Below, one piece after another: positions 1,560 to 22,130 of a stretch of 64,000 bases of DNA. Numbering within the stretch: position 1 is the stretch's first letter; each line of letters opens with the position of its first letter. A model generated the notes under the pieces. It was not told the origin of the DNA and searched no databases. It saw nothing but the letters and a program-made list of their open reading frames with translations. Source of the DNA: Candidatus Woesebacteria bacterium (lineage in GTDB: Bacteria; Patescibacteriota; Microgenomatia; UBA8517); the NCBI GenBank assembly GCA_016700095.1, contig CP065002.1, positions 432,463-496,462 on the forward strand. Reading direction: 5' to 3'. The position numbers and the translations under genes are program-made.

Positions 1560-2172
1560 GTAAATTAAACAAAAAAAAGACGCTTCGAAGCGTCAATTTA
1601 ATCAAACAAAAATGATTATAAAATTCGCCTCGGTAGGACTTACAAATCGCCTACTGTCTTTGGACTTAAGGTATTATATGTAAATAGTTGCATTAGGTCA
1701 AGATAGACAGTTTAATAAACTCGAAAGTAAGTAGGGCATGTTTTCCGCACCTAATTTCCCCCGTACTATCAAAAACTTTGGGAGAATTCCGAAGGTGTAG
1801 ATTTCCCTAAGAAGTAAATCAGAGCTTAGAAAGATGTATGAGGAAAAATAGGCTGTGAGACGGGGATAAGTAGTCCTACACAGCTTAACTTTTCAACAAT
1901 TGAATTGCCGCTAAGCGAAATATCACTATTTCATTTGTGCCAATAAAAAATCGCGAGACATTGTTTATGTTTTATAAATAGATCTATATTATAAGGTCAT
2001 GTGAATAAGTGGAAGTAAGTATTTTGGGCGAATCGAAGCTATGTTTCTTATCTACATATTGTTTATTAATTATTTTTTTTATTAACCATTAAATGATTCG
2101 CTTACTATTAAAAAAGACATAGGGAAAATTTATAATTAGCTAAAACAATAGACATCCTTGGGGTGATACACA

Positions 2173-10481: not shown

Positions 10482-12758
10482 TTAGTTAATTTTATGTTTT
10501 TGTGGCATCTTTTGTCTTAGTCTTAGCTGTTGTGCATTTCTCGTGTTGACGGGGGAAGATTCTCCGGTGTTATTGTCAACTCTAGTTACTTGCAATTTTG
10601 GGTTATTAATAAGTAAAGTTGTGATGAGTGCATTGACATCATTGCCCTCTATTACCCATATATCGAGAATGTATTTGCCTCCATTAAATTGGTTGGATTG
10701 AGGTGAGTTGTCAGGTGAAACAATCGGAACAAAGCTAATTCCGCATTTATCTGCACTTTCTCCAATTATTTTCATAACTCCCGCTTTTTCTTCGGTAACT
10801 ATGCGGAAGTGCGGGCATTCAAGTGTCCGATCAATTACATCGTCTACAAATCGGTCTGCCATAGCCAGCTGGGGGTTAAATCCATATAAATCATGCCATT
10901 CTTCCATGTAATGATCACTTTCGGTATTAATTGGCACATGAATCCCAACTTGATGCGCAATATCAGCAAACCCAGCATCCATTTTTTGGAATATTAATAT
11001 TGGTTCCTTTGGTAGATTGGGATTATCGCTTACTTTTCCTGAATAGGTTTTTTCAATCATTCGCGTTCCGCGAATAATTGCCCTAGTGCGAATTTCAGGA
11101 CCATATATCGCATCATCTGTTAGTTGTTCCAAACGCCTAGTTATATTGTTTATTGCTTTACCAGTTGTAACCATGTCAAGTCTATCTGGAAAAACGATAT
11201 TACGGCCCTTAGAACCTTCTGCGACTTCAAACCATACTTTGTCTCCTGGTTTAAGCGAGGTGTTTAACGGTAAACCTTCGTATTTATTGTTGCCTTGTAT
11301 TATAGTTACCTTCGTTGCATCATTTCCTAAGTTTCTTCCTATTGCATATGCGGCATCCAAAGCAGTAGCTCCGGATGCTACTGTCAATATTTCACCCGTA
11401 GGTGTTTCAATGTTGATAGTTCCTCTTCCCAAACCTTCGGTAAGTAACTCGATGTGCGGATCTCCGTTTTTTTGTAATTGATCGGTGTATCTTGCGATAT
11501 CTGCTAGCTTTTTCAGTGCACCTGTGGCTAAATCTGGATTGTTGGTATGTATACCTCTGAAATTATCTAAAGGATTTACTAGATCCTCCTGGTGAAAGAC
11601 ATGAACACGTAAGCGATGTGTTTTTCCCTCGTGAGAAAAAGGAAGACTTGGAGTTTCACCTTTGTGGGGTTTGAAACTTTCTTGCTCACCTAAATAATGT
11701 TTCCATTGGAGGACAGATGTTGTAGTATCACAAATTATATAAACTTCTGGAAGCATGTTTTCTTCTGTGGGGTTGTGATTGGCTAAGTAAACTTCTAGGG
11801 GAGTTTGTGTTTCAATTGCAATTGCCGAATACGGAATCCTCATATTGTCAACCCTCGCTGTACTAACCAATCGGTCAAGCTCATCATTTATTGATCCGAT
11901 TAAAGCATTGTCAACTATGTGTTGCATAGCCGTTAATCTCGCGTATTCCTGCGGGTTGAGCGACCTAAACGACGCGTTACCTATCAAATCGGCAGCATTA
12001 AATGCGCCCAGTCTTATGGCTAATTTGTAATACAATTCTACTGCGAGAGTCGCTTTTTCTATACTCTTATTTCTTGGTAAATGTTCGTAGGTGAGTGCGT
12101 TGTGAACAACATCTCCAACTGTTTTTATAATTACTGCGACTTGTTGCTCGGAGTTTAATGAGCCAAGAAGTTTAAATACGGTTTGTGTTTCTTCTTCGTT
12201 CCAATATGATATCTGAGTTTGTCGCGGTTTACCTTTTACATCTTCTTTTTTCCTGATTTTCGTTAGCGCGTCAACAATATTGCTAACATTTTTATTTGTT
12301 GCCTCCGTAATTTCGTCAAGAGAGGTATCCGTATCTTCGTAAATATCGTGTAGTACGGTTGCGCAAATTGCATCTTCGTCAGTGATGCCAAGTCGAAGTA
12401 AGTAATAAACCATCCACCAGTGGTGAGTTTGGGTTTCGTCATCACTTTTTCGTTTCTCTTTTCCTGCTTTTATTAATTTATCCTGTGCGAAGTCACCCGC
12501 CTGATTTAACTTATCAATTAGCTCGTCAGGATTGTCCACCTGCATACGAATATAAACGAAAGCTTTTTGTTTTATTTCTTCGGTAGTTATGCCAGTTGGC
12601 GGCAAAAGCGCTTCTTCGGGATAATCAAACGGACCCAAGTTTTCAAGATTAGATGAACTGCCCATTCTCGCAGCTTCGTTTAACAGCCGTCTCACATCAA
12701 TTTCGGTTGGTGATAGTTTTTTTTTGGCGCTGGGGGGAGCCGTTGATTCTGCCGTCAT
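10482..12758 (-). CDS. RelA/SpoT-family (p)ppGpp synthetase/hydrolase homolog (HD hydrolase domain, divergent synthetase region, TGS domain, C-terminal ACT-like region)
   Basis: HD region 'VLHDIYEDTDTSLDEI'. Synthetase-like segment 'DLIGNASFRSLNPQEYARL…RIPYSAIAI'. TGS 'IETPTGEILTVASGATALDAAYAIGRNLGNDATKVTIIQGNNK…LKPGDKV'. Confidence 0.75.
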   Translation of the reverse strand: MTAESTAPPSAKKKLSPTEIDVRRLLNEAARMGSSSNLENLGPFDYPEEALLPPTGITTEEIKQKAFVYIRMQVDNPDELIDKLNQAGDFAQDKLIKAGKEKRKSDDETQTHHWWMVYYLLRLGITDEDAICATVLHDIYEDTDTSLDEITEATNKNVSNIVDALTKIRKKEDVKGKPRQTQISYWNEEETQTVFKLLGSLNSEQQVAVIIKTVGDVVHNALTYEHLPRNKSIEKATLAVELYYKLAIRLGAFNAADLIGNASFRSLNPQEYARLTAMQHIVDNALIGSINDELDRLVSTARVDNMRIPYSAIAIETQTPLEVYLANHNPTEENMLPEVYIICDTTTSVLQWKHYLGEQESFKPHKGETPSLPFSHEGKTHRLRVHVFHQEDLVNPLDNFRGIHTNNPDLATGALKKLADIARYTDQLQKNGDPHIELLTEGLGRGTINIETPTGEILTVASGATALDAAYAIGRNLGNDATKVTIIQGNNKYEGLPLNTSLKPGDKVWFEVAEGSKGRNIVFPDRLDMVTTGKAINNITRRLEQLTDDAIYGPEIRTRAIIRGTRMIEKTYSGKVSDNPNLPKEPILIFQKMDAGFADIAHQVGIHVPINTESDHYMEEWHDLYGFNPQLAMADRFVDDVIDRTLECPHFRIVTEEKAGVMKIIGESADKCGISFVPIVSPDNSPQSNQFNGGKYILDIWVIEGNDVNALITTLLINNPKLQVTRVDNNTGESSPVNTRNAQQLRLRQKMPQKHKIN

Positions 12759-15404: not shown

Positions 15405-15409
15405 AATAA

Positions 15410-15526
15410 GATGGTAGATGGTAGATGGTAGATGGTAGATGGTAGATGGTAGATGGTAGATGGTAGATGGTAGATGGTAGATGGTAGATGGTAGATGGTA
15501 GATGGTAGATGGTAGATGGTAGATGG
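15410..15526. repeat. Heptanucleotide microsatellite (GATGGTA)n, ~16 perfect copies ending in a degenerate GATGGGA
   Basis: Read directly. The antisense 'IYHLPST'n ORFs in the track are artefacts of this repeat. Confidence 0.95.
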
Positions 15527-15563
15527 GAGTGATTTTTAGATAGAATTGATTCATAATCAAAAT

Positions 15564-16163
15564 ATGTATTCCGATAGTCCGAAAGTTCCATATAGTTTCG
15601 TCAAAATACTATTTATATATTTAGAAGGAATTTTTACATCGTTACTATTTTTAATTTTGGTTGGTCTGACATATGTGGTTCTTACGGGCAATGAAATGGA
15701 AAATCTTATCCTTTTGTGGATTTCTTTTACTCCGTGGCTGGCACGGGAATTACGCAATAGCTATACGTTTGATGCAACTGACCTTGTTGCCTTTCTACTT
15801 GTTTGGGGAGCGGTGATAAGTGTTTTTAGCGAATTGGTTTTGCGAAAAACAAGGTTACAAAAGTATATCCCGATAATACTATTTGTTTTTGGCACGATCT
15901 TTTTCCCGACAACTTTAATCGTACTATCTTTACGTTTTGGAATTATTTTTGCACTTTTGTTTTTGGGTGTACCATTTGTTATTTACACTTTCTGCATGCT
16001 TATGCTTTTAGTATTTGCTGTTGCCAGGAGAAGGCGTGTGCAAAATAAGGCAGTTGAGAAAGTTATATCACTAGAAAGTCAAATACCATCCACCAACGAG
16101 TCGAAATTAGAAGCTGATTCTACCAACGCTCCCGATTCACAACTTACCAGGCACTGGGATTAA
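15564..16163 (+). CDS. Hypothetical integral membrane protein (≥5 TM helices, C-terminal cytoplasmic tail)
   Basis: The ORF-track start at 15546 is TTG. The first ATG is at 15564 (MYSDSPK…). Several hydrophobic stretches. Confidence 0.5.
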   Translation: MYSDSPKVPYSFVKILFIYLEGIFTSLLFLILVGLTYVVLTGNEMENLILLWISFTPWLARELRNSYTFDATDLVAFLLVWGAVISVFSELVLRKTRLQKYIPIILFVFGTIFFPTTLIVLSLRFGIIFALLFLGVPFVIYTFCMLMLLVFAVARRRRVQNKAVEKVISLESQIPSTNESKLEADSTNAPDSQLTRHWD

Positions 16164-16226
16164 CTAACCTGTATACGATTTTGGTTCTTCACAAAAAATA
16201 CAAAAAGATGATAATTTAATCAATCC

Positions 16227-16691
16227 ATGTTGAAAGTAAAGCCATTTAAACAAGAAACAGGTTATTGTGGTCCGGCGTCTCTTAAGATTGTATTGGATTA
16301 CTATGGTATTGAAGTAACAGAAAAAGAATTAGTTGATTCTACCGATTGTTCGGTGCAGATGGGTGTCGAAGCCGGAAGACTTCTTGAGGCAGCGTTGGAA
16401 TACGGTTTGGAAGGGTATATTAAAGATTTTGCCGATTTAACCGATATTAAAAATCAAGTTGTTGACAAACTCAGACCGGTTATTGTAGATTGGTTTTCCG
16501 AGGATGATGGTCATTATAGTGTTGTGGTAGATATCGACGATGAAAATATTTATTTACTCGATCCGGAAATGGGACACGTCAGAGCAATGCGACATACGAA
16601 ATTCTACCGCGTTTGGTTTGACTTTCCGGGTGATTACATTAAAGCAAAAGACGATCTTACAATCAGAAGGATGATAGTTGTATATAAATAA
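16227..16691 (+). CDS. Peptidase C39-like (papain-fold cysteine peptidase) domain protein, standalone
   Basis: N-terminal 'ETGYCGPASLKIVLDYYG' matches the C39 catalytic-Cys motif (xCGxAxLxMxxxYYG). Downstream His/Asp candidates are 'GHYSVVVDID' and 'GHV'. Confidence 0.6.
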   Translation: MLKVKPFKQETGYCGPASLKIVLDYYGIEVTEKELVDSTDCSVQMGVEAGRLLEAALEYGLEGYIKDFADLTDIKNQVVDKLRPVIVDWFSEDDGHYSVVVDIDDENIYLLDPEMGHVRAMRHTKFYRVWFDFPGDYIKAKDDLTIRRMIVVYK

Positions 16692-16701
16692 ATTCAAATA
16701 C

Positions 16702-17748
16702 ATGACACAAGACCCTGGCGGTAATAACAATTCTCACGATTTTCCCAATACGGTTGGAATACTCTATAGCGAAGTTAAAAGAGAATACTTTCCTACAGAA
16801 GATCAATACTTAACTGAAAAAGACGCCCTTCACGATGCTCAAGTGATTGCGACATATCTTGATAAACTTGGCTTAAAAACCTATCTTTACCCTGGGGTTC
16901 CGGATGTAATAAATAGTCTGAAAAAGGACAAACCGGACATGGTAATTAATTTGGTTGGCTCGGTAAATGGGCAGGAATATTTGTCCTCGACGATTCCGGG
17001 AATGTTGGAAAGTCTCGATATACCATATACCGGGGCGGGAATTCTGGGAGAGTCACTTGCGTATAACAAGTTTTTAATTAAAGAGCTTCTCAAAAGCCAC
17101 GGTATTCCTGTTCCAAATTTCCAATTATTACCTGATATTGCAACTCCGCTTAGTAGTGACCTTCGGTTTCCGCTAATTTCCAAATTAAACGAAATCCATG
17201 GTGGGGTAGAAATTACCAACGACTCGGTTTCAAATGATGAAAAGCACCTTCGTGAACGCGTGAAGTATTTAATTGGGACGTACAAACAGCCGGTTGTAGT
17301 CGAAGAGTTCATTGCCGGAAAAGAAGTAACTGCGATGTTACTGGAAGGATTGAACAAAAAGGTTTATATGGCAGAAAAAGTATTTAAAGATTATGGTAAT
17401 CCTAACGCGTTTGCAACTTTTGAAGATCAATGGTTGGAGTCGGGTAAAGATAGTTACCGATATGAAAAATTCAGTGACAGTAATTTATCTCATCTTGTTA
17501 AAAAAGCATTTGATGTGACGAGAATGAGTGATTATGGAAAGTTCGATGTGAGAATTGACCAGTCGGGCAGGTATTATTTTATTGATAGCAATAGTAATCC
17601 TGCCTTCGGGCCGAAAGAATTGTATTGTGCACTATCGCTTATTCTTGATTTATATGGAATAAACTTCGGCGAGATCGTTAAAAGATTGTTAATGAACACG
17701 ATGAGAGATGCCAGAGGTAAAGAGAAACTTTCTCCGGTAGAGGAGTAG
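16702..17748 (+). CDS. D-Ala–D-Ala-ligase-family ATP-grasp enzyme (ddl or Ddl-like amidoligase)
   Basis: Ddl N-domain '…MVINLVGSVNGQEYLSSTIPGMLESLDIPYTGAGILGESLAYNK…'. ATP-grasp C-domain '…VVVEEFIAGKEVTAMLLEG…FDVRIDQSGRYYFIDSNSNPAFGP'. The ORF-track start at 16678 is TTG. The first ATG is at 16702, 10 nt after the C39 stop. Confidence 0.65.
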   Translation: MTQDPGGNNNSHDFPNTVGILYSEVKREYFPTEDQYLTEKDALHDAQVIATYLDKLGLKTYLYPGVPDVINSLKKDKPDMVINLVGSVNGQEYLSSTIPGMLESLDIPYTGAGILGESLAYNKFLIKELLKSHGIPVPNFQLLPDIATPLSSDLRFPLISKLNEIHGGVEITNDSVSNDEKHLRERVKYLIGTYKQPVVVEEFIAGKEVTAMLLEGLNKKVYMAEKVFKDYGNPNAFATFEDQWLESGKDSYRYEKFSDSNLSHLVKKAFDVTRMSDYGKFDVRIDQSGRYYFIDSNSNPAFGPKELYCALSLILDLYGINFGEIVKRLLMNTMRDARGKEKLSPVEE

Positions 17749-17973: not shown

Positions 17974-18438
17974 ATGGATTATTACAATTTGCCTGAAACA
18001 GTAACTTTTCTTGTTAGTCAAAAAGCGTTTATCGTCGAAAAAGGCAAATTACTTCTTCTTCGGTATCCCATCAAACCCAATCGTGAATATAGCGGATATT
18101 GGGCTCTACCGGGAGGGTTACTTGAAATCGATGAAAAATTAGATTCAGGATTACTGCGCGAAGTTAAAGAAGAAACGGGCCTTAGTGTTGAGATTGGAAA
18201 ATTGGTAGCGGTTGGGGATTCGTATTTTGAAAATTTTGTTTTTGCAAACAAAAAAGTAACAGATGTCAGAATCGTGCAAATTGGATATGAATGCACATTG
18301 GTCGGGAAGATAAAAGTTATAATTAGTGATGAACACATGGCTTTCAAATGGGAAAAGCTTGATAACCTTAAAGACAATAAATTTACCCCCGACTGCGTGG
18401 ATTTGATAAACAAATACACCAGCTTACACACGGACTAG
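17974..18438 (+). CDS. NUDIX hydrolase
   Basis: Nudix box 'GGLLEIDEKLDSGLLREVKEETGL'. Confidence 0.8.
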   Translation: MDYYNLPETVTFLVSQKAFIVEKGKLLLLRYPIKPNREYSGYWALPGGLLEIDEKLDSGLLREVKEETGLSVEIGKLVAVGDSYFENFVFANKKVTDVRIVQIGYECTLVGKIKVIISDEHMAFKWEKLDNLKDNKFTPDCVDLINKYTSLHTD

Positions 18439-19964
18439 CTTTCGAAATCCGCTAGATTTATGTTAACTGGAAAGTTTTGTCCTTGTGCACCCAGTTTTGC
18501 ATTATGAGCTCTTTGTTCTTTGTAATGCCAATGGAGTAGATGGCAGCTTGTAAACCCGTAAACCCTTTTTTGATCACCTTCACCAACTACAAGCAAAAAA
18601 GCTCTTGGTGATACAGTCTGAGTTTCAGGTGATGTACTTAAACCAATATTTCCTTCTAGATAAGTAGTGTCTAGCTCAATAACACCGTTACTGACATTTA
18701 GCGGTATCGGGTCGACGTCAAAATTCCATTTGAAATTATCATATCCCGTTTTTTCATCTAAAGTAGCCGGGTAGAGTCTGGCAGTTGATGCACCCGGTGA
18801 TCCGGTAAAAGTATATTTATCAGACAGCTCTCCTTTTATAAATGGATCATCCCAAAAACTCATCTGTGATTCGAGAGGGCTTGCCATATTTTCGTCCCCA
18901 AATACAGATCTATGTACGACAAGTTCCTCTTGCGGAGATAAAGGGCTTTCACCACTAAAATAATATTTCCAGTCACTCAAGTGGTGGGATAACAAGTGTT
19001 TCTGCGATTGCGACAACTTCCAGAGCATAATATTGCCTGAGCCAATGTTTTCGGTTCGGGGCATTGTAGGATAGGATGTCCAGTTTTCGAGTCTTAGGTA
19101 ATAATTTAACAAATGATAATTATTGTAAAGTGTATGATGTGTTTGTTCGTGGATTAATCCCGTGTCGACGACTTTTCCTGAATCAGGATCTTTTGCTAAA
19201 AATCCTCCGGAAGTCGGATTATATGTTTTGGGGATTAAGTATCTTGCATACACATCTTTCGAATTGTGAATTGAAGTTACTGATCCATAAGGAGCACCGG
19301 GATAATTTTGTAACCACTGCTCATCAACGACGATGACTTTAATTGGATGATTACTGTTATCCATTCTTATACCATTTATTCCGTTTTCGGGTCTTGTTCC
19401 GGCAAGGAGTTTATTTGGTAAAGCTCTAAAATGATATTCAAGAAACGGTAATAGTTGTTCTCCATCTGCATTTAATCCATCCTGCCACATTTTAAAAGCC
19501 TCATGACCAACAAATATTTCCGGAGTCCTAACACTATTTTCAGGTAAATCTGTTTCCTTGCGACTATTAATGTAGATTTCTAGTTCGTGTGGTTTGAGAG
19601 GCGTTTTCCAACCAAGCGTGTGAACAAAAGTGTCCACCCCCTCACGGCTGACGAAATGTGTTTCCTGGAGATTATTAAATTCTTTCGATTCGGTTGTGTA
19701 TCTAGTGTCAGGAGTAGCCGTCGGTAAGATCAAGCCTTTATCGGCATTTGCAACAGGGGCTGGAGTTGGAAATACGGTTTCGTCACCACACGCCGCTAAA
19801 ACAACTGCTGCACCAACAGAAGGTAAAAATTGCAAGAACCTCCTTCTTCCTGGGTAAGGTACCCCTTGTTGTATAAGTTTCTTTCTTTCGCCTTCGGGGA
19901 CATTAAGAATGTTTTCTTCAGTAATATCTGCCATGTCTATATTTTGATTTAATATCTTAACCAA
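18435..19964 (-). CDS. Tat-signal lipoprotein, putative secreted zinc metallopeptidase-like (HExxH: 'LIHEQTHH')
   Basis: Twin-arginine motif 'PGRRRFLQF' plus lipobox 'LAAC'. One HEQTH motif. The track start is TTG and the first ATG (MADITEEN…) is at 19934. Confidence 0.5.
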   Translation of the reverse strand: MVKILNQNIDMADITEENILNVPEGERKKLIQQGVPYPGRRRFLQFLPSVGAAVVLAACGDETVFPTPAPVANADKGLILPTATPDTRYTTESKEFNNLQETHFVSREGVDTFVHTLGWKTPLKPHELEIYINSRKETDLPENSVRTPEIFVGHEAFKMWQDGLNADGEQLLPFLEYHFRALPNKLLAGTRPENGINGIRMDNSNHPIKVIVVDEQWLQNYPGAPYGSVTSIHNSKDVYARYLIPKTYNPTSGGFLAKDPDSGKVVDTGLIHEQTHHTLYNNYHLLNYYLRLENWTSYPTMPRTENIGSGNIMLWKLSQSQKHLLSHHLSDWKYYFSGESPLSPQEELVVHRSVFGDENMASPLESQMSFWDDPFIKGELSDKYTFTGSPGASTARLYPATLDEKTGYDNFKWNFDVDPIPLNVSNGVIELDTTYLEGNIGLSTSPETQTVSPRAFLLVVGEGDQKRVYGFTSCHLLHWHYKEQRAHNAKLGAQGQNFPVNINLADFES

Positions 19965-20058: not shown

Positions 20059-21057
20059 TTATGCACCATGTGCAATTCTAATATTGTCGGCTAAATTTTC
20101 CAAAGCCTTTTGTTTCATTCCATCAATGTCCCTTAGTGGTTTAATATAGCCCTCATTTACTCCTGTACTTGCTATCATTGCCACAGCTTTTCCTGAGTCG
20201 TTAACTACTAGTGCACCACTAAAACCCGTTGTGAACGGAATGCTCGTTTTTATTACTTCACCTTCTTGCCTGGCTGTAAATGTCTTGGGTGAAACACCAT
20301 TGCTTTTTCTCGCGGCTTCTGTATATCCTATTGTGTGTAGATTTTCACTGGGATTTGGCACCCAATTAGTTGCAATGTCGCTAGTTGGGAACGGAGCGAA
20401 AGAAATAGCGTTAACGTCTTCCATTTTTATGGCAATAACAGCTTGATCAGATGGTTGATAAGCTTCCGTTGAAGAATCGTATTTTTTATCGACCGGGTAA
20501 GTGCTACTAAAGCCTATAAATAACGGTGTTACGGGTAAGTTTAATCCGGTGTGGATTTGATTCAAGTTAGTCTGTGCTTGGTGGGGTGGAAGGTCCGTTA
20601 TATTGTTAGCGGCGTGTCCTGCGGTCAGGATGTATGCAATGTTGTTTTCACTATCAACTTCCAGCAAAGTTGCGGTAGAAAATATTGGACTTTTTCCCTC
20701 ACCCATATGCATTTCCAGTCGAAAAGTAGATCGTTTCAAATTGACAGGTATTTGATCCAACTGTTCTTCAAATTCTTGCGGCGTCATTGCTTCCGAAGTT
20801 GCCGATATTGACGCTTGAGTTGTTGGAACAACGTCTTCGGCTGTTATTACAAGTCCCGGTGATGGTGTAATTTTTCTACCACACGCCGTTAAAGCAGTTG
20901 CTGTACCAACAGAAAATAAGATTTTCAGTATCTCCCTTCTTCCTGGTTTAGATACCCCTTGTTGTATAAGTTTCTTTCTTTCGCCTTCGGGGACATTAAG
21001 AATGTTTTCTTCAGTAATATCTGTCATGTCTATATTTTGATTTAATATCTTAACCAA
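20059..21057 (-). CDS. Tat-signal lipoprotein, trypsin-like (S1/chymotrypsin-fold) serine peptidase
   Basis: 'GRREILKIL' plus lipobox 'LTAC'. His motif 'YILTAGHAANN'. Ser motif 'GFSGALVVNDSG'. The N-terminal 35 aa are identical to the preceding gene. The likely ATG is at 21027. Confidence 0.55.
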   Translation of the reverse strand: MVKILNQNIDMTDITEENILNVPEGERKKLIQQGVSKPGRREILKILFSVGTATALTACGRKITPSPGLVITAEDVVPTTQASISATSEAMTPQEFEEQLDQIPVNLKRSTFRLEMHMGEGKSPIFSTATLLEVDSENNIAYILTAGHAANNITDLPPHQAQTNLNQIHTGLNLPVTPLFIGFSSTYPVDKKYDSSTEAYQPSDQAVIAIKMEDVNAISFAPFPTSDIATNWVPNPSENLHTIGYTEAARKSNGVSPKTFTARQEGEVIKTSIPFTTGFSGALVVNDSGKAVAMIASTGVNEGYIKPLRDIDGMKQKALENLADNIRIAHGA

Positions 21058-21170: not shown

Positions 21171-22130
21171 TCACTTTGACTCATTTGCCAGTAAATTGTC
21201 ATACGCTTTTTGTTTCAAGTCCGGTATGTTGGTTAGATATCGAAAGGTCGTTTCGTTGGTATCAGATCTTGTGATAATACCTACACCGTTTCCTTGATCA
21301 TTTACGACAAGTGATCCGCTGCAACCACCCGAAACTGTAGATCCGAAAAAAGCTTTATTTTCTCCGGTTCTCGAAACATGTAAATTTATCGGGAAAATGC
21401 TATCTTGATGAAAAGCTGCAGAAGTGAAAGTGAGAGCATGTAGTTTTTCGCCTACGTTTGAGATTTGACCTGATATTAATTTTTCCATACCAAAAGGAGG
21501 GATATTTAATTCACCTTCGTATCTAATGGCAATAACTGCCTGATCGGGATTATTCATATCAATTGGTTCCTTCTCAAGACCAAGCGGTAGAGTAGATGCA
21601 TAGCCGTGTGAAACTTCTTCCACTTTTTCCCCGCAGTGGTTTTGAGTCAATTGTATTGTCGAATTTTCCTTAGATAACGAGTTTGCAATGTGCCCGTTTG
21701 TAAGTACATATACAATTTTATTTTGAGTATCAACTTCTATAACTGTTCCTGAGCCTTTCATTTCAGTTACCTTGTTTGATTCCGTGTCGAGATAGGGTGT
21801 AGTTATTTCTACACGAACGGCAGAGTTTACTAAGTTGGGTGGAATTTCCCGCATTTCTGCTTGATATATTTCCGGAGTGCGAGCTTCAGAGGTAGCGTTA
21901 ATAGCTGCGGTACGTGTGGTTTGTAACGCCTGGGAAGTTGCCTGTACTTGACCTGTGTTATCAGGCTCTGCGCAAGCGATAAGTAAAGATGGTGGTAGCG
22001 AAACGACGATCGCACATTTCGTTAGTACACCAAGCAATTTTCTTCTACCGGGGTTTATTACACCCCAACCTGCCAATGCCAGTGCTTTTTCATAGGGGAT
22101 ATATAAAATATCGGATTCGTTGTCAACCAT
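21171..22130 (-). CDS. Tat-signal lipoprotein, trypsin-like serine peptidase paralog
   Basis: 'GRRKLLGVL…LIAC'. His motif 'YVLTNGHIANS'. Ser motif 'GGCSGSLVVNDQG'. Confidence 0.55.
   Translation of the reverse strand: MVDNESDILYIPYEKALALAGWGVINPGRRKLLGVLTKCAIVVSLPPSLLIACAEPDNTGQVQATSQALQTTRTAAINATSEARTPEIYQAEMREIPPNLVNSAVRVEITTPYLDTESNKVTEMKGSGTVIEVDTQNKIVYVLTNGHIANSLSKENSTIQLTQNHCGEKVEEVSHGYASTLPLGLEKEPIDMNNPDQAVIAIRYEGELNIPPFGMEKLISGQISNVGEKLHALTFTSAAFHQDSIFPINLHVSRTGENKAFFGSTVSGGCSGSLVVNDQGNGVGIITRSDTNETTFRYLTNIPDLKQKAYDNLLANESK

Follow-up and report, generated by a model that had tools for sequence, protein, structure and literature searches.

The subject of this report is a pair of adjacent genes in a Woesebacteria genome of the Candidate Phyla Radiation (CPR), one encoding a free-standing C39-fold cysteine peptidase and the other an ATP-grasp ligase of the D-alanine–D-alanine ligase (Ddl) superfamily, here named AG1; together they form a compact, probably translationally coupled operon. 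The window is the entire 64-kb stretch of DNA that was analysed, and coordinates and strands of open reading frames (ORFs) are window positions unless another locus is named. The cassette comprises the following features (lengths in nucleotides, nt, or amino acids, aa):

16188–16215, plus strand: promoter-like site TTCACA-16 nt-GATAAT, 12 nt before the ATG of the peptidase gene (consensus scan, 10 of 12 matches)
16227–16691, plus strand: gene for the free-standing C39-fold cysteine peptidase, 154 aa, product beginning MLKVKPFKQETGYCGPASLKIVLDYYG (ORF, Pfam)
16702–17748, plus strand: gene for AG1, the ATP-grasp ligase of the Ddl superfamily, 348 aa (349 codons including the stop; ORF, Pfam)
16702–16722, plus strand: hydrophilic N-terminal extension of AG1 that ends in Pro-Gly-Gly, a candidate double-glycine site (MTQDPGG, or MYINKFKYMTQDPGG when read from a TTG)

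Exactly 10 nt separate the stop codon of the peptidase gene from the AG1 ATG at 16702. An alternative AG1 start, a TTG at 16678 with AGAAGGA 6 nt before it, gives a product of 356 aa and a 14-nt overlap with the peptidase gene. Homologues at 55–76% identity number more than 1,300 for either protein, and both ORFs are on that ground taken as real genes. The promoter-like site fits a cassette that is its own transcription unit in the window, and is weak evidence alone, with fewer such sites in the region than in its shuffles. An earlier note on this DNA had described a 154-aa protein with a C39 motif and no ATP-binding cassette (ABC) transporter domains, followed after 10 nt by an ATP-grasp ORF; the ORF coordinates and Pfam matches agree with both statements, the length of 349 given there for the ligase having counted the stop codon.

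The window peptidase belongs to Peptidase family C39. It matches Pfam Peptidase_C39 (PF03412) at 46.1 bits (cut-off 22, above which it thus gathers) and Peptidase_C39_2 at 40.5 bits, as a single domain with a papain-like fold and a Gln/Cys/His/Asp set of catalytic residues; the Pfam scan found no ABC-transporter domains in the 154 aa, and the protein falls under the cut-off of all curated NCBIfam C39 families. The predicted catalytic residues are Gln9, Cys14, His96, and Asp112, of which the last three are invariant and Gln9 nearly invariant among 26 homologues. The AlphaFold2 (AF2) model has a predicted local distance difference test score (pLDDT) of 89.9, and its best Foldseek matches are the peptidase domains of LahT150, PCAT1, and ComA (template modelling score, TM, 0.66–0.72). 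The pseudomurein endoisopeptidase PeiR is also matched (TM 0.71), and the BtrH-like transacylases CtaG and AziU rank lower (TM about 0.54, E about 1e-4). The Cys/His/Asp triad, for which a structure prediction had been proposed as a check, is confirmed by this confident C39 fold together with the conservation of Q9, C14, H96, and D112. A conserved additional C-terminal segment, RVWFDFPG...IRR, is specific to this C39 family, with WFDF at residues 130–133 as the family-specific motif. There is no signal peptide, given that the catalytic Cys is already at residue 14. The window peptidase is predicted, from sequence and model, to be a cytoplasmic, catalytically intact, free-standing enzyme of the C39 fold.

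AG1 is a separate, slowly evolving family of ATP-grasp carboxylate–amine ligases within the Ddl superfamily, and not Ddl itself. It matches Pfam Dala_Dala_lig_C at 42.8 bits (cut-off 24), with no match to Dala_Dala_lig_N (PF01820) in the same scan, and it scores well below the cut-offs of the NCBIfam Ddl models TIGR01205 (85.0 bits, cut-off 245.65), PRK01372 (98.2 bits, cut-off 243), and PRK01966 (55.6 bits, cut-off 262), on which a true Woesebacteria Ddl reaches 274.9 and 318.6 bits. Profile and fold searches of the PDB return only Ddl/Van ligases, with low scores (59 bits; TM about 0.67). Neighbour-joining resolves three clades, namely canonical Ddl, a second Ddl-like paralogue (AG2), and AG1; AG1 sequences are 17–23% identical to Ddl and 54–76% identical to each other. 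The latter range holds across CPR classes and into Anaerolineae, whereas the true Ddl proteins of the same organisms are 43–60% identical over a comparable span.

For a residue map, 20 AG1 family members were aligned with what we take to be the sequence and numbering of E. coli DdlB. The ATP/Mg2+ residues are kept (DdlB K97 to AG1 K123, K144 to K161, E180 to E201, E187 to E208, D257 to D282, and N272 to N297), with E270 becoming D295. The residues that bind D-Ala and the tetrahedral intermediate are replaced (S150 to G167, K215 to Q243, Y216 to W244, R255 to K280, and S281 to E306), and the replacing residues are invariant or nearly so within the family, although the loop alignment, at 24% identity, is uncertain. 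The Ddl motif GGxSxExEVS is supplanted by YSEVKREYFPTE..YLTEKDA, which carries an insertion, and the N-terminal substrate loop of AG1 has a 10-residue insertion (YFPTEAQYLT). The AF2 model of AG1 has a pLDDT of 72.5, with the active-site loops below 50. On this map, AG1 has retained the ATP/Mg2+ machinery but not the D-alanine-binding residues; of the marks of a canonical Ddl (EC 6.3.2.4), it has the ATP/Mg2+ ligands and lacks scores above the model cut-offs, the N-domain with GGxSxExEVS, and the D-Ala-binding residues.

That AG1 is simply ddl, with the peptidase merely an unrelated neighbour, is hardly credible. The view has the database labels of AG1 relatives in its favour ("D-alanine-D-alanine ligase", or else "hypothetical"), and against it are the scores far under every Ddl cut-off, the replaced substrate residues, the separate clade, and the recurrence of C39 adjacency in unrelated contexts (below). 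Canonical Ddl also occurs alongside AG1 in two Woesebacteria: the complete genome CP055308 (locus L080) encodes a Ddl of 318.6 bits (cut-off 262) at 6–9 kb from AG1, adjoining a murF-like ORF (a name given from sequence, with no model scan), and close homologues of both ORFs have the same arrangement near AG1 at locus L043. AG1 is the sole Ddl-like gene in the window, which spans 64 kb of a 1.27-Mb contig, and no protein of the source contig was among the top 120 matches of a search that started from Woesebacteria Ddl. The source organism is considered to build a cell wall because MreB and a transpeptidase of the penicillin-binding protein 2 (PBP2) type are encoded in the window. The earlier note had offered a Ddl-like amidoligase as the alternative to ddl and a phylogeny against bona fide Ddl as one of the checks; the sub-cut-off scores, the replaced residues, and the clade of its own, at 17–23% identity to Ddl, all favour the amidoligase. 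Recognising AG1 as a ligase in its own right removes a mislabelling by which reconstructions of the cell wall could be misled.

The pairing of the two genes was surveyed from both sides. The AG1 side was represented by the 80 closest loci from GTDB species representatives; eight of these have a C39 gene directly upstream of AG1 on the same strand, and at L017 and L048 a divergent C39-like gene (26% identity, Q/C/H/D kept) is situated downstream of AG1 in convergent orientation. The C39 side was represented by 80 metagenome loci, 70 of them assessable and 10 with the contig ending too early. Of the 24 metagenome C39 genes with 61% identity or more to the window copy, 23 are immediately followed by AG1; a C39 clade of 53–60% identity, to which the 10 cut-short loci belong, is mostly without adjacent AG1 (45 copies), as are 45 of the 70 assessable loci overall. 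Solitary C39 copies occupy housekeeping synteny, such as smpB / C39-argS. The cassette itself, with ORFs that overlap or nearly abut, is found in at least five unrelated contexts (L001/L019/L025, L011/L013, L018, L039, L073, and the window). The earlier note's tight pair therefore stands as a co-conserved, same-strand module of several CPR lineages and contexts, as the gene-neighbourhood comparison it called for makes clear, and not as a fixed association, given the eight of 80 AG1 loci. Where it occurs, C39-AG1 is a tight pair that is kept or moved as a unit. Because the pairing is facultative, each enzyme must also work without the other encoded next door.

In one Microgenomates lineage, the gene order is hrcA-grpE-dnaK-C39-AG1-dnaJ. 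The C39 gene begins 3 nt after dnaK, its ORF runs 11 nt into that of AG1, and the intergenic gaps in the dnaK-C39-AG1-dnaJ arrangement are 3 nt and 25 nt. Inverted repeats resembling the controlling inverted repeat of chaperone expression (CIRCE), the operator of HrcA, are located upstream of hrcA and between AG1 and dnaJ in these dnaK-operon loci (2388–2414 and 7080–7106 in L001; also in L019, L108, L109, L111, and L117). By virtue of the bracketing CIRCE-like repeats and the position between dnaK and dnaJ, C39-AG1 is regarded as part of a heat-shock transcription unit in this lineage, and the placement persists where GrpE is only 56–60% identical. There is no CIRCE within 3 mismatches in the 64-kb window, the element being confined to the Microgenomates dnaK-operon loci.

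Other genes accompany AG1 across the surveyed loci. AG2, the second and more Ddl-like ligase, is directly downstream in about 30 of the 80; a KamA-family 2,3-aminomutase is nearby in nine (TIGR00238, 231 bits vs. 199), a GNAT acetyltransferase in three, and a 444-aa protein weakly similar to the ATP-grasp enzyme BesA in six. A 460-aa protein distantly similar to MurL (NF041275, E = 1e-7; 30.7 bits vs. a cut-off of 700) occurs in five loci (8604–9986 in L023; L047, L051, L055, and L065), its gene being directly upstream of AG1-AG2 in four of these (Roizmanbacteria-type) and close by in L055. MurL uses ATP to epimerise the Glu at the end of a murein precursor (PMC8788868). Some loci have tandem AG1 paralogues, and in 17–18 loci, which belong to one syntenic group, the gene next to AG1 is a divergently oriented one for a ClpB-like ATPase. 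AG1 is also found in Anaerolineae/Chloroflexota at 59–63% identity, always solitary (L085, the 3.6-Mb Anaerolineales genome CP070639; L089, Bellilinea; L071, L077, and L082); identity of this level across phyla is unusually high conservation.

The C39 subfamily has partners of its own. It is fused, in both domain orders, to one or two AstE/AspA-M14 deacylase/carboxypeptidase domains (L137, L138 with 734 aa, L144, L146, L151, and L160; P0363, P0367, P0431, and P0439), a distant family member of 608 aa (P0458) is a phosphatase-C39-NUDIX fusion, and at L161 the C39 gene adjoins a Ddl-like-GNAT fusion. Free-standing C39 relatives at 35–41% identity, which keep the catalytic residues and an RVWFDW motif, are encoded on phage-like IMG/VR contigs (L171–L183; 34–371 kb, several of 317–371 kb); the 6 kb flanking these phage C39 genes gave no tblastn match to an ATP-grasp or AstE relative, and AG1 has no relatives in IMG/VR. 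A phage or mobile origin of the pair was rejected on these grounds, namely the lack of an IMG/VR relative of AG1 and the distance of those of C39. An anti-phage defence system was likewise rejected: PADLOC gave no C39 match and, for AG1, only 13 bits at E = 0.0097. As a separate observation, four Woesearchaeota (DPANN) contigs (L008–L010 and L126), which carry tRNA-intron endonuclease and TFIIS genes, have a C39 gene 61% identical to the bacterial copy, beside a transposase and without AG1; this suggests inter-domain transfer of these C39 copies.

The explanation we favour, tentatively and from neighbourhoods and fusions, is that AG1 and C39 are ligase and hydrolase for one and the same small non-ribosomal peptide, or for a peptide tail. 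AG1 would convert a carboxylate to an acyl-phosphate at the expense of ATP and then join it to an amine, yielding an amide bond; its product would be a small non-ribosomal peptide, perhaps with beta-, D-, or N-acylated residues, or its target might instead be a peptide or protein terminus. The C39 enzyme would be the cognate thiol hydrolase for bonds of that class, or an enzyme of their processing or transfer, and the two would jointly set the level of the product, as do glutathionylspermidine synthetase/amidase or tubulin-tyrosine ligase/vasohibin. A peptide-bond pathway is proposed because both families accompany enzymes that make, alter, or break amide bonds, including ligases, a mutase that forms beta-amino acids, acetyltransferases, a relative of a terminal-residue epimerase, and hydrolases of N-acyl-amino acids or C-termini. 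The presence of the cassette in the HrcA/CIRCE heat-shock operon of one Microgenomates lineage suggests a stress-linked role. Together, the C39 link, the peptide-bond neighbours, and the dnaK-operon placement point to an uncharacterised peptide-metabolite or peptide-tagging pathway.

Several observations weigh against this ligase/hydrolase explanation. The whole mechanism is drawn from context. The pairing is facultative, with an upstream C39 in eight of 80 AG1 loci and no AG1 beside 45 of the 70 C39 loci that could be assessed; none of the accessory genes (AG2, KamA, GNAT, and the rest) is present in the 64-kb window; and the chaperone context is lineage-specific, the window itself having no CIRCE. 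The replacement of R255 by K280 and of K215 by Q243 is unusual for an active ATP-grasp enzyme, a point that has to be read with the uncertainty of the loop alignment at 24% identity and with an AF2 model that is weakest exactly in the active-site loops.

A different function for the peptidase is suggested by the AG1 extension, as C39 enzymes cut after Gly-Gly and C39 may therefore clip AG1. In such pro-enzyme processing, the leader would be removed between MTQDPGG and NNNSHDFPNTVG in the window (a candidate substrate peptide is MTQDPGGNNNSH), which would activate or release the ligase; that this is the main role of the peptidase in the cassette is unlikely. With "linked" denoting an AG1 with a C39 gene directly upstream, the motif [DE][EKD]P(P)GG occurs 4–13 residues before NG[FY]xLPKxVGII in 13 of 18 distinct linked AG1 sequences and in two of 63 that are unlinked (Fisher p = 2e-9, without phylogenetic correction), as for instance in L003, with the leader MATDQPPKKPDEPGG followed by TSK. 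In the AG1 tree, C39 and PGG coincide on three separated branches or more (the main clade, to which the window belongs, L073/L170, and L094), the first residue of leaderless AG1 proteins falls almost exactly at the predicted cleavage point (L053, MKTNGFHLPK), residues 1–11 of the extension are modelled as disordered (pLDDT below 50, AF2), and the overlapping C39/AG1 ORFs suggest co-translation. Yet several linked AG1 proteins are without GG, among them the closest homologues of the window protein (P0123, P0126, and P0130) as well as L011, L013, L021, and L103; unlinked AG1 often has DKPP at the same place, so an older motif may have given rise to PGG as a lineage variant; and most members of the C39 family have no AG1 nearby, so that other substrates are needed. 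The leaders bound by C39 domains have the consensus LSxxELxxIxGG and are amphipathic, unlike the acidic and hydrophilic leader of AG1. Quite improbable is a ligase that has a double-glycine leader of the bacteriocin style, cut by the adjacent C39 enzyme directly after ...[D/E][E/K]PGG, which would be a proteolytically switched and, in the one lineage with HrcA/CIRCE, stress-controlled amide ligase. In the boldest version, the exposed Gly-Gly carboxylate would itself be activated and ligated to an amine by the ATP-grasp enzyme; if true, ultra-small CPR bacteria would possess a minimal tagging chemistry resembling that of ubiquitin. Maturation of a peptide made by ribosomes and modified post-translationally (RiPP), which the earlier note had put forward, invokes double-glycine cleavage as well, AG1 modifying and C39 removing the leader of a precursor encoded elsewhere; we consider it very unlikely. 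The ligases of graspetides are of the RimK/MdnB/MdnC-like type, whereas AG1 is Ddl-type by the Pfam, NCBIfam, and PDB models, with no direct comparison to graspetide ligases. The C39 fold is nearest to bacteriocin leader peptidases, and graspetide clusters with both ATP-grasp and C39 are reported (PMC8939145). However, the 3-nt and 25-nt gaps of the dnaK-C39-AG1-dnaJ arrangement leave no space for a precursor gene, no conserved small ORF or exporter is situated beside the cassette in the 80 AG1-side and 80 C39-side loci, and both genes are near-universal, highly conserved, and in housekeeping synteny (smpB-C39-argS), unlike RiPP clusters. An ABC exporter is encoded 4.4 kb downstream in the window; it has no C39 domain and is not co-conserved with C39-AG1. 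Neither the exporter fusion and nearby GG precursor of a bacteriocin system with a peptidase-containing ABC transporter (PCAT), nor the MdnB/MdnC-type macrocyclase and adjacent precursor of a graspetide cluster, is present, the latter again as judged without direct comparison to graspetide ligases; ribosomal-peptide maturation was thus not borne out.

Tagging in proteostasis, in which AG1 would append amino acids to the terminus or a side chain of a protein and C39 and, elsewhere, the fused M14-type carboxypeptidases would remove them, tuning chaperone or protease clients under stress, would account for the location of the cassette within the hrcA-grpE-dnaK unit under CIRCE control, shared by genomes whose GrpE identity drops to 56%, and for the ClpB-like ATPase divergently adjacent to AG1 in 17–18 loci. 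RimK and tubulin-tyrosine ligases add residues to proteins, and the enzymes of the tubulin code (tubulin-tyrosine ligase and its relatives, TTL/TTLL, vasohibin, and the carboxypeptidases CCP) are mirrored here by an ATP-grasp, a papain-fold peptidase, and an M14 carboxypeptidase; the very high conservation of both families is also expected of enzymes that recognise a conserved macromolecule. We nevertheless judge this a rather unlikely account, because AG1 is Ddl-type and the characterised members matched act on small molecules, its commonest partners (the second ligase, aminomutase, GNAT, and epimerase-like protein) point to small-molecule chemistry, and no candidate target was identified. 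The Clp and DnaK contexts may also be plain lineage synteny, the Clp gene travelling with tmk and a nucleoside triphosphate (NTP)-transferase gene. In peptidoglycan-peptide metabolism, AG1, AG2, and the MurL-like protein would build or re-ligate non-canonical stem or bridge peptides, or salvaged murein peptides, that C39 and the M14/AstE-like domains would cleave in the cytoplasm. Ddl is the closest known family to AG1, the MurL-like protein (aligned over nearly its full length) directly precedes AG1-AG2 in four of its five loci, the C39 model matches PeiR (TM 0.71), the M14-type MpaA is a murein-peptide amidase, and the organism makes a wall (MreB and PBP2-type transpeptidase in the window). 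Such a role in peptidoglycan is improbable all the same: no mur or dcw gene is consistently beside AG1 or C39 in the surveyed loci, the true ddl-murF pair is placed elsewhere, the similarity to MurL is very weak (30.7 bits vs. 700), and placement in a heat-shock operon is left unexplained. The proteostasis, peptidoglycan-peptide, and AG1-processing explanations are not separable by sequence data alone.

The genes and features that flank the pair, and one RNA element elsewhere in the window, are as follows:

15409–15526: perfect 7-bp microsatellite, (AGATGGT)x16.9 with 100% matches, between a 173-aa ORF and the membrane-protein ORF
15546–16163: hydrophobic (membrane-protein) ORF of 205 aa, upstream of the pair (ORF listing)
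17974–18438, plus strand: NUDIX hydrolase gene, after a 225-nt gap from AG1 and with its own promoter-like site (Pfam, consensus scan)
1563–1681, minus strand: ribosomal protein L10 leader (RF00557, 47.7 bits vs. 44)

A membrane protein and a simple sequence repeat directly upstream of the pair had been noted before, and the 205-aa ORF and the microsatellite correspond to these. Neither the 173-aa and 205-aa ORFs upstream of the pair nor the NUDIX gene downstream of it has counterparts beside the pair in the other loci examined, and for that reason none of them is counted as a part of the system. The (AGATGGT)x16.9 repeat could be a slippage-prone switch for the gene downstream of it. Elsewhere in the window, three consecutive genes on the minus strand (18435–19964, 20059–21057, and 21171–22130) encode apparently exported proteins. 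The first two share a near-identical N-terminus of 35 aa, MVKILNQNIDM[A/T]DITEENILNVPEGERKKLIQQGV, followed by a signal-like segment that contains RR; the product of 20059–21057 has a Trypsin_2 domain, that of 21171–22130 is similar to it by eye, and the 509-aa protein of the cluster has no Pfam match. A 758-aa RelA/SpoT-like protein with HD_4 and TGS domains (10482–12758, minus strand) has no match to a synthetase domain at E <= 1e-4 and, on this domain content, may be a hydrolase-only (p)ppGpp enzyme. Four tRNA genes are located at 41.5–45.3 kb.

Genomes of CPR bacteria (Patescibacteria) are tiny and hold many conserved genes without a known role; the C39 and AG1 proteins are both small and soluble. 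Compared with Ddl, AG1 has the same ATP-grasp fold and, because the ATP/Mg2+ ligands are conserved, presumably the same acyl-phosphate chemistry, but it has no N-domain match, a loop insertion, and replacements at S150, K215, Y216, R255, and S281, and it is encoded outside a mur context and coexists with true Ddl in relatives. The C39 domains of PCATs (LahT, PCAT1, and ComA) have in common with the window peptidase the papain-like fold and the Gln/Cys/His/Asp residues; the latter is free-standing, cytoplasmic, and without an ABC transporter, is about 20% identical to them, has no adjoining gene for a GG-leader peptide, and bears the extra C-terminal RVWFDFPG...IRR segment.

Glutathionylspermidine synthetase/amidase unites in one polypeptide a papain-like CHAP amidase and an ATP-grasp-type synthetase for the same bond. 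The logic of ATP-dependent synthetase and cysteine amidase is the same as that proposed for C39-AG1, by analogy only: here there are two genes, the cysteine enzyme is C39 rather than CHAP, and neither protein has a Pfam match to the glutathionylspermidine-synthetase family. An ATP-grasp ligase together with a C39/BtrH-like cysteine enzyme is also the combination of BtrJ/BtrH (butirosin) and CtaD/CtaG (closthioamide) (PMC7183216). Those systems need an acyl or peptidyl carrier protein (ACP/PCP), whereas none is encoded in the C39-AG1 locus gene lists (precomputed Pfam) or the window ORFs flanking the pair, and the fold matches to CtaG and AziU (TM about 0.54) are weaker than those to PCAT peptidase domains.

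The searchable literature, which did not include the 2009 survey by Iyer, Abhiman, Burroughs, and Aravind (Mol Biosyst 5:1636), yielded no description of the C39-AG1 pair. That survey reportedly covered neighbourhoods of ATP-grasp amidoligases and peptidases, and is said to include the same general kind of association, in which ATP-grasp enzymes that serve peptide metabolites or tags adjoin peptidases, AstE/AspA-type enzymes, and GNATs. Systems that link an ATP-grasp amidoligase to a peptidase are already known as a kind; what seems new in C39-AG1 is the combination of a free-standing C39 enzyme with a slowly evolving Ddl-like ligase across the CPR, its insertion into the dnaK operon of one lineage, and a possible GG leader.

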